Position numbers and translations under genes: made by a program
Source of the DNA: Clostridia bacterium
GTDB lineage: Bacteria > Bacillota > Clostridia > Christensenellales > UBA1242
Reading direction: 5' to 3'
DNA length: 64,000 nucleotides
NCBI GenBank assembly: GCA_016297915.1
Contig: JAEDFU010000004.1
Span: 1,544 to 65,543, forward strand
Shown: in pieces, positions 9,634 to 49,997 of the stretch
Position numbering within the stretch: position 1 is the first letter of the stretch
Layout of the letters: each line of letters starts with the position of its first letter
The notes under the pieces: model-generated
The model's input: only the letters and a program-made list of their open reading frames with translations
Told to the model about the DNA's origin: nothing
The model's database searches: none

Positions 9634-9732
9634 CTACAAAAAAACACCGATTACAAAGTTACTATTGCTAAAATCACTTTGATATCAAAGCAATAAATGA
9701 AAATAAGTATTCCTTTTTGTAATTGGTGTTTT
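9634..9732 (-). terminator. compound long hairpin, candidate tkt terminator
   Basis: 17-nt arms AAAACACCGATTACAAA (9641-9657) / TTTGTAATTGGTGTTTT (9716-9732), one mismatch. They enclose an inner hairpin TATTGCT (9663-9669) / AGCAATA (9689-9695). On the minus strand a 7-U tract follows. Lies 118 nt after the tkt stop. Confidence 0.4.
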
Positions 9733-9849
9733 GCTGGGTCAAAAGTTACTGCAAAAGTACAATTTGTCAGTCACTGCCCAAATTTATAATGTTGACATAT
9801 AGGGCTCTATATGTTCATTACATTAGTAGGATATCTAAATTTTGATAAA

Positions 9850-20154: not shown

Positions 20155-20778
20155 TTATTTAGAGTACAACTCTACAATCAAATGTTCACGGATGTTAAGA
20201 TCAATATCGTCTCTTTGTGGCATTGCGTTAATTTTTCCAGTAAGTTTTTCTGTGTTAAACTCCAACCATTTAGGCATAACAACTTTAACATCTTTCAATT
20301 CTTTAAACATAGGAAGTTCCTTTTTGTTCTCTTTGACAGCGATAACATCGTCAACTTTAACAAGGTAACTAGGGATGTTTACAGTCTTGCCATTAACAGT
20401 GATATGTCCGTGGTTAACAATTTGTCTACTCTCTTTTCTTGAAGCACCGATACCCATTCTGTATACAACATTATCAAGTCTTCTTTCCAAAAGTGATAGC
20501 ATATTTTCGCCGACAATACCAGTTCTTTGGTTATTAGCCATATCATAATATGCTCTAAATTGTTTTTCAAGCAAGCCATATGCTTTTTTAACTTTTTGTT
20601 TTTCTCTCAATTGTAGACTATATTCAGTAGCCTTCTTCCTTGCAGCGCCATGTACACCTGGTACATTAGGTCTTCTTTCCATAGCACATTTTTTAGAAGT
20701 ACATCTTTCGCCCTTAAGGAATAGTTTGCATCCCTCACGACGACAAATTCTACAATCTGCACCTGTATATTTTGCCAT
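20155..20778 (-). CDS. rpsD: 30S ribosomal protein S4
   Basis: MAKYTGADCRICRREG (zinc-finger form) plus S4 RNA-binding domain. Confidence 0.93.
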   Translation of the reverse strand: MAKYTGADCRICRREGCKLFLKGERCTSKKCAMERRPNVPGVHGAARKKATEYSLQLREKQKVKKAYGLLEKQFRAYYDMANNQRTGIVGENMLSLLERRLDNVVYRMGIGASRKESRQIVNHGHITVNGKTVNIPSYLVKVDDVIAVKENKKELPMFKELKDVKVVMPKWLEFNTEKLTGKINAMPQRDDIDLNIREHLIVELYSK

Positions 20779-20797: not shown

Positions 20798-21193
20798 TTA
20801 TATTCTTCTGCGTTTTGGTGGACGACAACCATTGTGTGGAATTGGTGATACATCCTTAATCATAGTGATATCAATGCCAACTGTTTGAAGTGCTCTGATA
20901 GCAGTCTCTCTACCATTGCCTGGTCCTTTAACATAAACTTCAACAGACTTGATACCTTGTTCTTTAGCACTTTTAGCAGCGATTTCAGCAGCTTGTTGAG
21001 CAGCATAAGGAGTGCTTTTTCTAGCGCCACTAAGACCCAAACTACCAGCACTACTCCAAGAAACAGCATTTCCAGCGTTGTCTGTAATTGTGATAATAGT
21101 GTTGTTAAAAGAAGCGTGAATATATGCAGCACCTTTATCTAAATTCTTAGTTACTTTTTTCTTTTTTGTAACTTTACTTTTTGTAACAGCCAT
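20798..21193 (-). CDS. rpsK: 30S ribosomal protein S11
   Basis: [29 protein letters not shown]. Confidence 0.93.
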
Positions 21194-21214
21194 TTATTTT
21201 CTCCTTAAAAATTT

Positions 21215-21595
21215 TTACTTAGCTTTCTCTTTTTTGGACTTAGAAACAGTTTTCTTAGGACCTTTTCTAGTTCTTGCATTTTGTTTTGTGTTTTGACCAC
21301 GAACTGGCAAACCTTTTCTGTGGCGAATTCCACGATAGCAACCAATCTCTTGTAGTCTTTTGATGTTTAATGAAACTTCTCTTTGAAGGTCACCTTCAAC
21401 AACGCAGTTCTTTTCGATATACGCTCTGATTTTACCTACTTCTTCTTCGGTCAAATCCTTAACACGAGTATCTGGATTAACTTTTGTTTCCTTCAAAATT
21501 TCATTAGCAGTTTGTCTACCAATGCCGTAGATATAAGTCAAACCTATCTCTACTCTCTTGTCATTTGGTAAATCAATTCCAGCAATACGAGCCAT
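21215..21595 (-). CDS. rpsM: 30S ribosomal protein S13
   Basis: [26 protein letters not shown]; GGAGGA SD upstream. Confidence 0.93.
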
Positions 21596-21669
21596 TTTTT
21601 TCCTCCATAAATTTATTTAATTTATTTGTTTAGATAATACTTGTAAAGTTGCTAAATTTATTAGCATAA

Positions 21670-21873
21670 GTAATGCTCAAACTTTGAGCATTACGGTCTC
21701 AAAAGAGATTTTGAGACGGTTATGTAAATAACATAACTTTAAGCCAAATCAAGTTGTCTGATTTGGTCTCCCGAAAAGGCATGGGCCTTATCGAAATATA
21801 TATAAACGCAAAGTAAGAATTTGCCGCGACTTACTTGCAATTATTTTCAAAGTCATTACTCAAAATCATGAGT
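21670..21873 (-). other. hairpin-dense structured region in the rpmJ-rpsM spacer (function unknown)
   Basis: Seven consecutive stem-loops: 21670-21694, 21696-21717, 21720-21736, 21744-21766, 21776-21789, 21808-21838, 21858-21873. No SD-preceded ORF and no U-tracts. Confidence 0.5.
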
Positions 21874-21907
21874 GTAAAATAGATTACATTAGACTTTTTA
21901 GACAGTA

Positions 21908-22024
21908 TTAACCTTGTCTTTGTTTGTGTTTAGGATATTTTGAACAAATAACCATAACTGTGCCATTTCTTTTGATAATTTTGCAACTGTCACACATTTT
22001 CTTTACTGATGGTCTTACTTTCAT
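21908..22024 (-). CDS. rpmJ: 50S ribosomal protein L36
   Basis: Not in the ORF track. Manual translation gives [38 protein letters not shown] (38 aa, zinc-binding form). Confidence 0.92.
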
Positions 22025-22036
22025 AACTTTACTCTC

Positions 22037-22264
22037 CTAATTTTTGTTTTTTAGTCGCCAAATTATGCGACCTTTTGTTAAGTCGTAGAGTGACATTTCA
22101 ACTTTTACTTGGTCACCCACTAAAATTCTAATGTTGTTTAAATGAAGTTTTCCGGATAAATAAGCGGTAATTATATAACCATTAGAAAGCTGAACTTTGA
22201 AGTTAGCATTTCTCAAAACTTCGACTACAACACCTTCTGTTTCTACAACATCTGTTTTTGACAC
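22037..22264 (-). CDS. infA: translation initiation factor IF-1
   Basis: [25 protein letters not shown]...RIIWRLK. Start set to GTG 22264, 10 nt after AGGAGG. The ORF-track TTG 22288 would overlap the upstream gene. Confidence 0.9.
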
Positions 22265-22278
22265 AAACAACAAGCCTC

Positions 22279-22539
22279 CTATTTGCAATCACTAGATTTA
22301 ATGTAATCTTTCAAATATTTTATGACATCACAATTTTTTATCAAATTTAGATTTAGTCCACTATTTGATTTTAACAATTGCAAATGTCTAAAATTCTTTT
22401 TCTTAGGACATTCCAAAGGTCTTGATTTGCCATTTACGAGATACGCAAAATTATTGTCTATCTTAAATATTACAAATATCTCGTTTTTTTCTCTTCCTGC
22501 TGTTGCTTTTACAACAGCTCCACTACAAAATTCTGCCAT
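22279..22539 (-). CDS. KOW-domain RNA-binding protein (map-infA spacer gene of Bacillota)
   Basis: [18 protein letters not shown]...[19 protein letters not shown] pattern plus conserved position between map and infA. Confidence 0.6.
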
Positions 22540-37359: not shown

Positions 37360-37369
37360 GTAAAAACAC

Positions 37370-37396
37370 AAAAAGGTCTCTATTTGAGACCTTTTT
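37370..37396. terminator. bidirectional terminator between convergent genes
   Basis: Perfect 10-bp stem AAAAGGTCTC (37371-37380) / GAGACCTTTT (37386-37395) with a 5-nt loop. Confidence 0.85.
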
Positions 37397-37398
37397 AT

Positions 37399-39513
37399 TT
37401 ATTTTTTGAGTTTTTTGGCACTATCTAAAAGACCTTGCAAAGATGTTTTCTTTTTTGGTTCTGGTTTAGTCTCTTCAGCTGGTTTTTCTTCAGTCTTTGT
37501 TTCCTCAGTTTTGTCAGCGGAAGTTTCTTGTGATGTTTCTTTTTTGTCTACATCTTTGTCTTTTGTCGATTCTTTGTCCTCAACAGCTTTGATTGTGTCA
37601 TCAATTGAATTAGCCAAATCATTTTGATTGTCGATTAATTCTTTGTTTGTTTTTTCGATATCTTTTTGGATATTTGCAAGATTTGCAAATGGATTTGAGT
37701 ATTGCTCAGCTTCCTTCTTTTCTCTTGCTTTGATTTCTTCAATATCCTTGTTGTACTCAGAGTTTTGTTTGTTTACTTCTCTAAGTTTGGATAGCAACTC
37801 ATTTTCTTCGTTTTTGAGTTGTTCATCACGATTATCACTTGAAACTATATCGGCAATTGGATTTTTCTTTTGAGCTTTGACTTCGGTCTTTTCTTCCTCG
37901 TCATCCTCATCATCAAAATCCTCGTATTTTCTACGCTTTTTCTTATCAGCAACTCTTTGTCTAAATTCTGGAGTATTGAAGTAATCTCTAACATTATTGA
38001 TAGCCTCAATCTCAGCAAGTCTAACCTTGATATCTTGTTCAAGTTTGAGGATATACTCTTGTTTAGCCTTGATATCAGCGTCTTGGTCAGCAACAAGCAA
38101 TGTCATTTTGTCGATTTCTTCTTGCAAAATCTTAGATTTTTCTTCTTTTTCCTTAAGGATTGGTTCTTGTTGAGCTTGAATTTCTTTGTTAATTTGTCCC
38201 CAAACCTTGTTAGCATAAGTACGACATTCACTCATCATATTTTCTTCGACTTGAGATTTTTTCTCTTTGATTTCTGCAGTAAGCGATGCAATATCTGAGT
38301 CCATCTCAGTTTGTTGTTTTTCAAAATTGACTTTGGAATATTCGTAGTCTTTTTCCAATTGTTGTTGTTTTTGTTGTTCTTCGTTATATCTCTTTTTTAG
38401 GTAGTTAGCCTCAATCTTAACTGATGTTGCATTTAATTGCTCAGTAAGAGATGCCATGTTTTCCCTAACGGCTTGAGATTTTCTCTCATAATCTTTGGTA
38501 ACTTCGTCAAAAGCCTTTTGGAAGTTAAACATTTCTTGCTCTTTGGAGTTAATTCTCTCAGTTATTCCACGCTTAAAGTTAAAGTATTTTTCACCCTCTA
38601 ACATAGCTCTATCTAGTAGCAAAGCACTCTCAACCCCAACTGGTTCAAAGTTAAAGTCCTCAAAGTGATTTGTGTTCATCTCTGCTTCTTCAGCTTCTTT
38701 TTGTTCTTGCAAAGCTCTCTTTTCGAGATATTCTTGCAATACTGGAATAGCCTCTCTAATTTCCTTTGGAGTAAACAAAACTTCGTAATCAACAAATGAA
38801 GGCATTGTTGAGCAGGCTTTGTTTAGATATCTTTCAAATTCATGGAATTCATAATACAAGTCAGCATATCTGCTTGATTCTAGCAATTTAAGAATAGTTG
38901 TTACAAACAAACCAATAAAGGTATAAAATAGTGGGAACATGAATATTTCGAGTAGTCCCTCAAAAGTTCCGATTGTCTCGCCTGCAGTAGCACCACTGCC
39001 ACTACCATATTGATTAAGTGGCGCACCATAAACAAATACAAATCCAAATAGCATTGTTAGCACAGATACCATGATTGTGATAAACATAACCGTATTTGAA
39101 ATATTCTTGTATGCACTACTACGAGTTGGTTGGTCAATACAGGAAACAGAGTTGATATACTCTGATGGTTGTCTATCTCTATTAAGCATGTATTCCTGCC
39201 AAGAATATCTTAGAGTCTTAGGAACTTGCTTAAACTTGTTGTTGACCTCAACCAAGTTATCTTCGTTAATAAATGGATTTTTCTTAAAATACCTATTAAA
39301 TCCCGAAACACTATGCAAAAGTCTTGACTCATAAGTACGAGATATTAATACACAACAGATAATGATGCCTAGTAGGAACACAGCCAAAGACACATAAAGT
39401 ACATATTGCAAACCCGATTGAGGGTCTGTACCACTGAAACTACCAATGGTTCTAAATACATTCATGATGCTGCCTACTAAGTTATCTGCCAAAAACTGAC
39501 ATACATTAGACAT
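37399..39513 (-). CDS. polytopic membrane protein with about 480-aa E/K-rich coiled-coil tail, unknown function
   Basis: Three hydrophobic helices (about aa 37-58, 143-165, 190-215). The remainder has heptad-like E/K/Q-rich sequence and an acidic DFDDEDDEEE patch. AGGAGA SD upstream. Confidence 0.6.
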   Translation of the reverse strand: MSNVCQFLADNLVGSIMNVFRTIGSFSGTDPQSGLQYVLYVSLAVFLLGIIICCVLISRTYESRLLHSVSGFNRYFKKNPFINEDNLVEVNNKFKQVPKTLRYSWQEYMLNRDRQPSEYINSVSCIDQPTRSSAYKNISNTVMFITIMVSVLTMLFGFVFVYGAPLNQYGSGSGATAGETIGTFEGLLEIFMFPLFYTFIGLFVTTILKLLESSRYADLYYEFHEFERYLNKACSTMPSFVDYEVLFTPKEIREAIPVLQEYLEKRALQEQKEAEEAEMNTNHFEDFNFEPVGVESALLLDRAMLEGEKYFNFKRGITERINSKEQEMFNFQKAFDEVTKDYERKSQAVRENMASLTEQLNATSVKIEANYLKKRYNEEQQKQQQLEKDYEYSKVNFEKQQTEMDSDIASLTAEIKEKKSQVEENMMSECRTYANKVWGQINKEIQAQQEPILKEKEEKSKILQEEIDKMTLLVADQDADIKAKQEYILKLEQDIKVRLAEIEAINNVRDYFNTPEFRQRVADKKKRRKYEDFDDEDDEEEKTEVKAQKKNPIADIVSSDNRDEQLKNEENELLSKLREVNKQNSEYNKDIEEIKAREKKEAEQYSNPFANLANIQKDIEKTNKELIDNQNDLANSIDDTIKAVEDKESTKDKDVDKKETSQETSADKTEETKTEEKPAEETKPEPKKKTSLQGLLDSAKKLKK

Positions 39514-49943: not shown

Positions 49944-49997
49944 AAAAAGCACTAAGTGCAATTGGGGTGTACCCCAAATTCACTTAGTGTCTTTTTT
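49942..49997. terminator. bidirectional compound terminator (rplI / YitT-family gene)
   Basis: Outer stem CACTAAGTG (49950-49958) / CACTTAGTG (49981-49989). Inner stem TTGGGGT/ACCCCAA. A-run before, T-run after. The 3' arm overlaps the last codons of the YitT-family gene. Confidence 0.75.

Follow-up and report, generated by a model that had tools for sequence, protein, structure and literature searches.

A candidate two-part leader in the rpmJ-rpsM spacer of a gut Clostridia lineage: a putative S4 operator joined to an array of hairpins maintained as structure

Alpha-operon leaders and the folding of the rpmJ-rpsM spacer

Ribosomal-protein leaders are a main source of natural protein-binding RNAs. 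Among those that bear on the alpha operon, the S4-Clostridia leader (RF03140) is found upstream of rpsM-rpsK-rpsD-rpoA-rplQ in Clostridia (Eckert & Weinberg 2020, PMC7247131), and consists of two adjacent hairpins that are separated by CUGGGU and flanked by GAAAGG on the 5' side and CAAUUAGG on the 3' side. The alpha leader of E. coli, which is under autogenous control by S4, provides the precedent for such regulation (PMC7247131); it forms a pseudoknot into which the rpsM RBS is incorporated (Alpha_RBS, RF00140), and according to the title of PMC3616713 it is restricted to Gammaproteobacteria. It has also been demonstrated that protective stem-loops, placed between cistrons or at the 5' end, can set differential decay within operons, with E. 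coli malE-malF, Rhodobacter puf and Clostridium cellulolyticum cip-cel as examples (PMC5927463, PMC10667835).

The locus described here lies in a 64-kb stretch of DNA (the window) from a host that belongs to an uncultured, AT-rich gut Clostridia lineage. The genes and the gap of interest are as follows.

21908-22024, minus strand: rpmJ (L36), a 38-aa ORF and the last gene ahead of the spacer
21596-21907, minus strand: the rpmJ-rpsM gap, 312 nt between the two gene calls
21215-21595, minus strand: rpsM (S13), the ORF that heads the rpsM-rpsK-rpsD-rpoA-rplQ block
20155-20778, minus strand: rpsD (S4), a 207-aa ORF, 19 nt past rpsK in the same operon

Pfam supports these calls in loci L001-L010, with Ribosomal_L36 matching an identical rpmJ gene, Ribosomal_S13 found together with the same gene order, and Ribosomal_S4 and S4 domains both placed on rpsD. 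Gene order and Pfam thus agree with the preliminary description in locating rpsD in the alpha operon; rpsD has no leader of its own, and its product is presumed to be the trans-acting regulator of the operon. The ORF list for both strands likewise upheld the description of a 312-nt gap without a credible ORF, as the frames in the gap span only 20-33 codons and all lack an SD. A small ORF or leader peptide was rejected on these grounds, and none of the frames is conserved because the sister-species sequences are unrelated. Two other initial impressions did not survive. Spacers between rpmJ and rpsM had been taken to be usually short, whereas over 76 Clostridia species they have a median length of 294.5 nt (IQR 175-355; at least 200 nt in 52 of the 76) and a median folding z of about -3. 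The 312-nt gap is not exceptional within Clostridia, where long, highly structured rpmJ-rpsM spacers are the rule and the expectation from Bacillus or E. coli is inapplicable. Segments of the spacer had also been considered richer in G+C than their surroundings, but its GC content is 29% against 34% for the whole window.

The gap is nonetheless a real, unusually hairpin-dense untranslated RNA. Its MFE is -85.7 kcal/mol, as compared to -50.5±4.5 in dinucleotide shuffles (z -7.9), and the antisense strand reaches -83.1 (z -7.6). A GC-regressed scan sliding along the whole window ranked 21621-21800 as the top outlier on both strands (-5.3/-5.0, next best -3.7), which places the most structured 180 nt of the 64 kb in the rpmJ-rpsM gap; its hairpin density is unmatched by the other intergenic regions of the window, and the next outliers are ordinary terminators. 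All seven hairpins of the preliminary description were found where it had placed them, and the fold contains further predicted helices. The stems are almost all perfect Watson-Crick. From 5' to 3' on the transcribed strand, the helices are:

21892-21897/21849-21854, minus strand: predicted closing helix, newly added
21874-21887, minus strand: predicted helix, newly added
21858-21873, minus strand: stem-loop, 5 bp
21808-21838, minus strand: stem-loop P1, 9 bp with one bulged U
21776-21789, minus strand: stem-loop, 5 bp, extended by an outer 4 bp (21771-21794)
21744-21766, minus strand: stem-loop, 8-9 bp, within array unit 21741-21770
21719-21737, minus strand: stem-loop, 7 bp
21696-21717, minus strand: stem-loop, 9 bp
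21670-21694, minus strand: stem-loop, 11-12 bp, perfect
21650-21666, minus strand: predicted helix, newly added
21607-21625, minus strand: predicted AU hairpin abutting the SD, newly added

The spacer occupies the same position as RF03140, and with the E. coli leader it shares a place upstream of rpsM in an operon containing rpsD. No Rfam family, S4 leaders and Alpha_RBS included, matched it. RF03140 (gathering threshold 37.5 bits) gave no match even at E<=10 either in 21100-22400 or in 13 outgroup loci, and none at the gathering threshold in the whole window; the same search detected it in the equivalent spacer of L028, L079, L088, L073 and L034 (38.6-49.3 bits). Neither GAAAGG nor CAATT[AT], the flanks of RF03140, is present in the window spacer. 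The Alpha_RBS model returned 29 bits at 21563-21666, below its gathering score of 38 bits; this match owes its score to the conserved rpsM start (AUGGCUCGUAUUGC), the modelled hairpin has non-canonical pairs, and sub-threshold matches of 18-27 bits occur in all relatives. Matches to the LasI thermometer, freshwater-2 and other Rfam entries were at chance level and were dismissed.

The conserved 5' module and its P1 hairpin

Comparison with related loci divides the spacer into parts that differ in how they are conserved:

21849-21897, minus strand: conserved 5' domain, in the MFE fold a closing helix AAAGUC/GACUUU around hairpins 21874-21887 and 21858-21873
21794-21847, minus strand: core leader motif and candidate S4 operator, delimited by covariance model R1 and covariation
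about 21796-21806, minus strand: AUAUAUA box 3' of P1
21650-21794, minus strand: array of six stem-loops between the core motif and the RBS, with linkers of 0-3 nt and no U-tracts; units 21771-21794, 21741-21770, 21719-21737, 21696-21717, 21670-21694 and 21650-21666
21602-21649, minus strand: RBS-proximal segment, conserved in the genus (L003, L091-L110)
21639-21649, minus strand: weak 4-bp hairpin within the RBS-proximal segment
21602-21606, minus strand: SD GGAGG, adjoined by the 3' arm of AU hairpin 21607-21625

The 5' domain, which contains a genus-conserved GUAAUC box at 21882-21887, is ~100% identical to that of the sister species L003, L007 and L091, as compared to only 77-83% identity at the third-codon positions of rpsM (81% for L003). 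The core motif has an A-rich 5' flank, AAAAUAAUU, and a short helix P0 (AUAA/UUAU), and is built around P1, in which 9 bp interrupted by the bulged U21812 enclose the loop UCGCGGCAAAUU at 21818-21829. In the genus-only alignment A3, P1 is 97.8% paired with compensatory changes at 4 of its 9 pairs, and the observed score was reached by none of 500 shuffles. Covariance model R1 matches the window once, at 21794-21847 (75.7 bits), and matches each of 13 genus loci once (66.7-79.8 bits).

A conserved, covarying RNA structure in an operon that encodes its putative ligand, here rpsD, has the general character of a ribosomal-protein leader. Because of its position and the precedents of the E. coli alpha leader and RF03140, the P1 module is most likely an operator for S4 feedback on the alpha operon, an assignment by analogy; the S4 ligand of RF03140 was assigned by the same prior logic and is putative there as well. 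The ligand could instead be another protein, or the module could have none. The earlier suggestion of an S4-responsive leader holds up for P1 only, out of the seven hairpins; P1 and its A/U-rich flanks are conserved and covary, and the element belongs to no S4 leader family in Rfam.

How P1 would communicate with translation initiation across ~200 nt is not evident, because the SD finds inconsistent partners between species in the folding ensembles; SD sequestration was discarded as a mechanism for this reason. The AU hairpin at 21607-21625 forms with a pairing probability of 0.8-0.9.

Related Clostridia outside the genus carry a wider motif, P1-CGGCU(G)-P2, about 35 nt ahead of the ATG of rpsM. 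The joint MAFFT alignments of genus and outgroup (A2, A5) were structurally unreliable, and per-sequence MFE folds were used instead; independently folded, 14 of 16 outgroup sequences show P1, a 5'-bulge CGGCU(G) and P2 with differing stem sequences. Measured in 14 outgroup loci, the distance from the end of the trimmed motif to the ATG is 32-46 nt, and mostly 32-39, as compared to about 199 nt in the window and about 229 nt in L003. Both P2 and the CUG are missing from the window copy. The 13 distinct genus loci all lack P2 and carry an array, whereas all outgroup loci have P2 and either no array or at most one hairpin, and the window P1 is, as judged from these sequences, a genus-specific, P2-less derivative of the wider motif. 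In both the RF03140 instances and the outgroup motif, GCGGCUGG is followed directly by a hairpin, although GCGGCU is the 3' strand of stem 1 in RF03140 and CGGCU is an unpaired 5' bulge in the outgroup motif; in the window, where P2 is missing, the CGGCU region is part of the terminal loop UCGCGGCAAAUU, and only the pentamer GCGGC of the GCGGCUGG box is shared with RF03140. It is possible, if somewhat doubtful, that P1-CGGCU(G)-P2 represents an uncatalogued motif, widespread in non-Lachnospiraceae gut Clostridia, of which the window carries a P2-less form joined to a structure-only array.

Purifying selection on the stems of the array

The array between the core motif and the RBS is conserved in an altogether different manner. 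The window array folds with a z of -9.6, and the 14 genus arrays, from about 13 distinct loci, all have a sense-strand z between -2.8 and -9.6. These arrays vary from 3 to 7 hairpins and from 71 to 197 nt in length, and their loop and stem sequences are all different. The window array is no more similar to those of 11 further genus members than shuffled controls are (z -0.9 to +2.1), and it is unrelated in sequence even to that of a sister species with an identical S13; its sequence has been replaced faster than synonymous sites change. Turnover by entire units can be seen in a perfect hairpin, ATCGAGC-ACAA-GCTCGAT, which is present whole in L095 and wholly absent from L096, and an arm of which takes in flanking bases.

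Over shorter distances the stems are clearly retained. All within-species variants of the spacer are located in the array, mostly in loops: 8 of 12 variant events fall in loops and one in a linker, and of the three that hit stems two are C>U changes that yield a sense-strand G·U. In close pairs, 46 of 65 changes occur in unpaired nucleotides, which make up 36% of the total (p = 1.3e-8). The stems of the array are therefore kept by purifying selection. Of the stem changes in close pairs, 8 give a wobble pair on the sense strand and 2 on the antisense strand, and in 13 of the 14 arrays the sense MFE equals or exceeds the antisense MFE in stability (p = 0.002); because of this strand asymmetry it is suggested that selection acts at the RNA level, although the 8:2 wobble asymmetry is not significant by itself. 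Hypermutation of the spacer was rejected, as within the species it carries 22-29 differences per kb, compared to 16-21 outside it. The conservation and covariation of helices raised in the preliminary description thus apply in part: P1 covaries and the array stems are kept between close strains, and the array sequence is unconserved between sister species.

With loops and stems both free of sequence conservation, the array can only act in a generic way. Its stable stem-loops stand at a cistron boundary and are conserved as structure, and like the known protective stem-loops they are consecutive hairpins free of U-tracts, located between cistrons and independent of sequence. The protective cases usually have one or two hairpins, whereas the genus arrays have 3-7 in tandem over 70-200 nt; in further distinction, the array lies inside a ribosomal-protein leader, downstream of a conserved operator-like motif. 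The processing platform proposed at the outset fits the hairpins other than P1 better than a ligand-binding leader does, if taken as a generic "processing/stability platform".

A proposed composite leader and its alternatives

On this evidence, we consider it somewhat probable that the gap is a composite alpha-operon leader, or intercistronic UTR, in which a candidate S4 operator precedes a protective array selected for its structure. The conserved 5' module with P1 would serve as the operator in a feedback of S4 on rpsM-rpsK-rpsD-rpoA-rplQ. An ancestor of the genus would have gained about 70-200 nt between the motif and the RBS, and this segment would have been kept as a chain of short, near-perfect stem-loops whose sequence is free to change so long as foldedness is retained, with turnover occurring hairpin by hairpin, possibly via snap-back synthesis. 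Most likely, the array would compact a long stretch that is free of ribosomes and make it hard for endo- and exonucleases to attack and for Rho to load; it may thereby shield the alpha mRNA at its 5' end and also stand as a barrier at the 3' end of the infA-rpmJ segment upstream. This mode of action is modelled on selective RNA processing and stabilization, for which the AUAUAUA box, single-stranded and lying between P1 and the array, might, speculatively, offer a cleavage site. The array should be dispensable in principle, since relatives lacking one still express, and may regulate, the same operon.

To our knowledge, no S4 leader has been described in Clostridia outside Lachnospiraceae, and the P1-CGGCU(G)-P2 motif with its P2-less form provides a concrete and testable candidate. 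The array, for its part, is a natural test of structure-only selection, with about a dozen close species carrying unrelated sequences, conserved stems and drifting loops at the same position, and it bears on what selection for foldedness alone looks like and on whether long untranslated stretches of essential operons have to be shielded from nucleases or Rho. Should it prove necessary for regulation or stability, it would constitute a clear natural case of sequence-independent selection on RNA foldedness, as well as a new accessory element of ribosomal-protein autoregulation. Whether an operator hairpin coupled to a structure-only array amounts to a previously undescribed two-part architecture for an alpha-operon leader is a proposition we advance tentatively, and with rather low confidence.

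Other explanations merit consideration. The array might be integral to a switch responding to S4 or another ribosomal protein, whether as a substitute for P2, as a source of kinetic delay, or as a multibranch link between operator and RBS. The loss of P2 and the gain of the array do coincide on one branch, but this co-occurrence is a single evolutionary event, and the free variation in hairpin number, length and sequence is hard to square with a specific tertiary role. RNAalifold does propose, for the L100 group, a long-range helix between the AU box and the pre-SD sequence with the array inside it; being invariant, the helix has no support from covariation, and as it is missing from the Boltzmann ensembles of every species it was set aside, leaving an integral switch unlikely. 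A different set of observations bears on events in DNA. The stems are near-perfect Watson-Crick and the antisense strand folds nearly as well, and for this reason an origin or maintenance at the DNA level, through template-switch "palindrome correction", is possible. That the hairpins are nothing but a neutral by-product of snap-back or template-switch synthesis in an AT-rich, unconstrained spacer, with no function as RNA, might be argued from the same two features, from the unit-wise presence and absence of ATCGAGC-ACAA-GCTCGAT between L095 and L096, and from a turnover that outpaces synonymous sites. We regard this as quite unlikely, given that comparable hairpin density occurs in no other intergenic region of the window, that the property persists in all 14 genus arrays, that changes avoid stems, and that both the wobble preference within stems and the relative stability of the strands favor the sense RNA.

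Short palindromes clustered in an intergenic space within an operon also recall REP/BIME sequences, and the absence of the array from the same site in the outgroup would be in keeping with an inserted REP/BIME-like or MITE-like selfish element. REPs, however, are dispersed, near-identical copies, while each hairpin of the array is unique. A blastn-short search of the 64-kb window with the spacer returned only itself and chance matches of 10-15 nt, and the longest palindrome, sought in exact or degenerate form among 241 million metagenome records, was found on one contig, which is the same locus. No terminal inverted repeats or target duplications were found around the array, and the sequences at this site are unrelated across species; the REP-like repeat entertained initially thus finds no support, and insertion of such an element is highly improbable. 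Least likely of all is an independent, stable small RNA, which the high structural z-score and the strongly conserved 5' module might otherwise recommend. Such an ncRNA gene, too, had been offered as an alternative, yet the region is bracketed by neither promoter nor terminator: in the window no promoter was detected ahead of P1, and across 21100-22400 the sense strand has no hairpin plus U-tract that would resemble a terminator. It has, moreover, no Rfam family, and it shares the orientation of a tightly packed operon in which its position is always the same.

The same scans weigh upon the possibility that the hairpins are terminators, attenuators or pause sites dividing the spc and alpha units, with the alpha genes driven from a promoter immediately ahead of rpsM. 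Downstream of the array, at 21647-21619, there is indeed a weak promoter-like site, TTTACA-17-TAAATT (9/12), and in the outgroup locus L114 a hairpin and T-run can be discerned by eye right after rpmJ, with a promoter-like site upstream of its motif. The scan of L114, however, found no terminator, and the terminator scan of the window agrees with the original remark that no stem-loop is trailed by a U-tract, unlike the bona fide terminators elsewhere in the window, which carry long ones. Promoter-like matches were fewer than shuffles would lead one to expect (3 against 5.2), and the site at 21647-21619 is unconserved in L003 or L091, as read by eye; a promoter there would, in addition, strand the strongly conserved P1 module, leaving it no gene downstream to act upon. 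Taken together, these points render a division of the two units by the hairpins very unlikely. A candidate promoter in the P1 region, TTGACT in L003 or ATGACT in the window followed by TAAGTC, was rejected, since it falls inside the covarying P1 stem and has no valid -10. As a separate matter, L095 and L096 carry an insertion gained independently, and this insertion contains a consensus promoter.

Spacer and fold

The minus-strand gene order in the window, with Pfam assignments taken from identical contigs, is secY-adk-map-(86-aa ORF)-infA-rpmJ, then the gap, then rpsM-rpsK-rpsD-rpoA.

21908-22024, minus strand, rpmJ
21596-21907, minus strand, rpmJ-rpsM gap (312 nt)
21215-21595, minus strand, rpsM

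The spacer finding is real. As first described, the 312-nt gap is without a credible ORF (those found are 20-33 codons, none with an SD), which rules out a coding role for its array, the six tandem stem-loops at 21650-21794; the impression that it is G+C-richer than its surroundings was mistaken (29% vs 34% for the window). All seven stem-loops of the preliminary description were recovered where it had placed them, together with several more. The sense RNA folds at -85.7 kcal/mol against -50.5±4.5 in dinucleotide shuffles (z -7.9), and the antisense strand is nearly as well folded (z -7.6). When a sliding 180-nt structure scan was run over the whole window and regressed on GC, 21621-21800 came out as the strongest outlier on both strands (-5.3/-5.0; next best -3.7). 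The second-strongest plus-strand outlier was a long inverted repeat at 9641-9735 (both strands), whose arms of about 18 bp, AAAACACCGAUUACAAAG...CUUUUUGUAAUUGGUGUUUU, are spaced about 55 nt within a 200-nt stretch lacking a long ORF.

A long spacer is not in itself unusual in this clade. An S13 probe led to 80 species-representative loci, the nearest titled, for example, 'uncultured Clostridia bacterium' or 'Christensenellales bacterium'; Lachnospiraceae make up most of the remainder. Across the 76 with rpmJ before rpsM, spacer length has a median of 294.5 nt (IQR 175-355, range 18-547), so that the premise of usually short rpmJ-rpsM spacers fails here. Most are also structured (median z about -3; z < -4 in 31%), and the window's, at z -9.1, ranks 2 of the 66 scored. 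As such, a long structured rpmJ-rpsM spacer is normal in Clostridia, and that of the window is an extreme case. The S4-Clostridia leader RF03140 lies inside the spacer in five loci (two Blautia, Konateibacter, Hominisplanchenecus and Ca. Bariatricus), in agreement with its first description as the leader of rpsM-rpsK-rpsD-rpoA-rplQ (PMC7247131). In L028, L079, L088 and L073 (Blautia, Konateibacter, Hominisplanchenecus) a second conserved element, CAUUUCA plus a hairpin, stands between the RF03140 motif and the RBS, ~60-100 nt 5' of rpsM; RF03140 may be part of a larger leader.

The conserved hairpin P1 and its relatives

Contigs with identical S13 form two groups, the window species (L001, L002, L004-L006, L008-L010) and a sister species (L003, L007), between which rpsM third-codon identity is 81%. 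The first ~115 nt and last ~30 nt of the spacer are essentially identical in the two, whereas the middle ~170-200 nt is unalignable, its global alignment scoring at the shuffled level (z 0.1); the sister species has a different hairpin run at the array position. Ten further lookups with S13 variants (89-98% identical) added 26 loci, and in every member of the 93-100% S13 group (the genus) the 5' module is retained and leads into an array of that member's own, with 3-7 simple hairpins in 71-197 nt. The two parts of the gap thus evolve in opposite ways: the P1 module is conserved and covarying, but the array sequence is unalignable even to the sister species.

The module core, P1 (21808-21838), has 9 bp, a bulged U21812 and the loop UCGCGGCAAAUU, flanked 5' by AAAAUAAUU and 3' by G-UUUAUAUAUAUUU. 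Among ten distinct genus sequences it is paired at 97.8%, with both-sided changes in four of nine pairs; its covariation score was reached by 0/500 shuffles, and slid controls were only 31-52% paired. A covariance model based on P1 finds a single site in the 64-kb window (21794-21847, 75.7 bits) and one per genus locus; in outgroup species it matches the corresponding place weakly (20-32 bits). The module is a leader motif and probably the real regulatory element of the spacer. As leads only, the P1 loop CGCGGCAA resembles the 16S 530-loop, CCGCGGUAA, and GUAA, contained in the conserved upstream GUAAUC, has reportedly been discussed for Firmicutes S4 leaders in PMC7247131.

In the outgroup (S13 identity 75-92%) a longer hairpin occupies this position: P1 is followed by an unpaired 5' bulge CGGCU(G), a second helix P2, often with a CAUUCCA loop (of which the CAUUUCA element is reminiscent), and then the P1 3' strand and the AUAUAUA box. 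The P1-CGGCU(G)-P2 architecture appears in 14 of 16 independent MFE folds despite differing stem sequences. From the trimmed motif end to the rpsM ATG is 32-46 nt (mostly 32-39) in 14 outgroup loci, compared with about 199 nt in the window and about 229 nt in the sister-species locus L003. The genus has thus lost P2 and acquired the array on one and the same branch.

The motif is absent from Rfam. Alpha_RBS matches stayed below threshold (18-29 bits vs a gathering score of 38) and owe their score to the conserved region around the rpsM start codon, and RF03140 had no match at E<=10 in the window or 13 outgroup loci; its sole feature in common with the outgroup motif is the box GCGGCUGG with a hairpin after it, and homology is unproven. 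This uncatalogued leader motif, with its P2-less derivative, is new. The only family at gathering threshold in the window is the ribosomal protein L10 leader RF00557 (52019-52155, minus strand, 69 bits vs 44).

An array selected for structure

The window array has no significant similarity to other genus arrays (z -0.9 to 2.1), and yet sense-strand z is -2.8 to -9.6 in 14/14 arrays. Within the window species, all spacer variants fall inside the array: 12 events comprise eight in loops, one in a linker and three in stems, two of the latter being C>U changes that give a sense-strand G·U and the third opening a loop-closing pair. Spacer divergence (22-29 per kb) is just slightly above that of the flanks (16-21 per kb), which rules out hypermutation. 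In five independent close pairs the unpaired nucleotides (36%) take 46 of 65 changes (binomial p = 1.3e-8); between L091 and L092, loops or linkers account for 20 of 21 differences and all stems are retained. Homologous hairpins of the L100-L108 group carry compensatory swaps, e.g. GCAGG/CCUGC vs GCAGU/ACUGC, and one perfect hairpin of L095 is missing from L096 as a unit. The array is thus selected for structure, not sequence. Also new is such a tandem array of hairpins, in which foldedness is maintained although one sister species differs from the next by replacement of the sequence. Sense folds are at least as stable as antisense in 13/14 arrays (p = 0.002), and stem changes in the close pairs are paired on the sense strand alone vs the antisense alone by 8 to 2; this is suggestive of selection on the sense strand, although inconclusive because most stems are perfect Watson-Crick.

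Several other identities for the array were considered. Intrinsic terminators are ruled out: none of the gap hairpins is followed by a U-tract, as originally noted, and the sense strand has no terminator-like site. The other intergenic outliers inspected were ordinary bidirectional terminators with long U-tracts. The two strong hairpins between convergent ORFs at ~37360-37400 and ~49945-49985, with A-runs and U-runs at their flanks, are typical bidirectional intrinsic terminators, unlike those of the array. The suggested REP-like, dispersed repeat is not supported, as blastn-short of the spacer against the 64-kb window returned the self-match only and, of 241 million metagenome records, just one has the longest palindrome, again downstream of this rpmJ. 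That contig (L117, JABLTK010099825.1, 2360-2581), the sole metagenome carrier of the 25-nt palindrome, agrees with the window as far as ...AAATTTATG and then diverges to unrelated sequence in place of GAGGAAAAAAATGGC (rpsM); the probable cause is a chimeric assembly at the AT-rich pre-SD segment, or else a rearrangement. A stable ncRNA fares no better, as the promoter/terminator scan excludes an sRNA gene that carries signals of its own.

Putative mode of action and transcription

The leader is composite: an operator-like hairpin that covaries and is conserved in sequence stands beside a hairpin array that is conserved in structure but free in sequence. Given its position, precedent, and an rpsD in the operon that has no leader of its own, S4 is the putative ligand, and we give roughly even chances to S4 binding at P1 (its GCGGC loop and the A/U flanks included) as the route of feedback on the alpha operon; the earlier proposal of an S4-responsive leader thus survives as a candidate for one hairpin and not for the rest. 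No consistent pairing linking P1 to the SD across the array was found, and control by an operator 200 nt upstream is as likely at the level of stability or transcription as at that of translation. As loops, stem sequences, hairpin number and length are all unconserved, the array may, tentatively, act generically as a compacting and protective structure. It would hold a long stretch free of ribosomes in a compact form that resists RNases or Rho, serving the alpha mRNA as a 5' shield and the segment upstream as a 3' barrier, for which selective RNA processing and stabilization offers a model (PMC5927463, PMC10667835). Speculatively, an endonuclease could cleave at the AUAUAUA box, which is single-stranded and lies between P1 and the array.

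As the scan gave no promoter 5' of P1 in the window, the leader there is most simply read through from infA-rpmJ. Promoter content varies within the genus, since L095 (634-765) and L096 carry an extra ~100-nt insertion upstream of P1, which contains a long hairpin as well as a promoter close to consensus (TTGAAA-17-TATAAT with TG, 11/12); outgroup locus L114 has a promoter-like site upstream of the motif. The ORF between map and infA (22279-22539, minus strand; 86 aa) shares a few bases with the infA start region and keeps its position in all relatives (86-92 aa). A Pfam search at E<=1 gave no match for it, and none of the contigs has a precomputed hit. The best promoter-like site of the neighbourhood, TTGATA-16-TAAAAT (10/12; 22317-22344, minus strand), lies just 5' of infA, and a transcript covering infA-rpmJ-leader-rpsM could start there.
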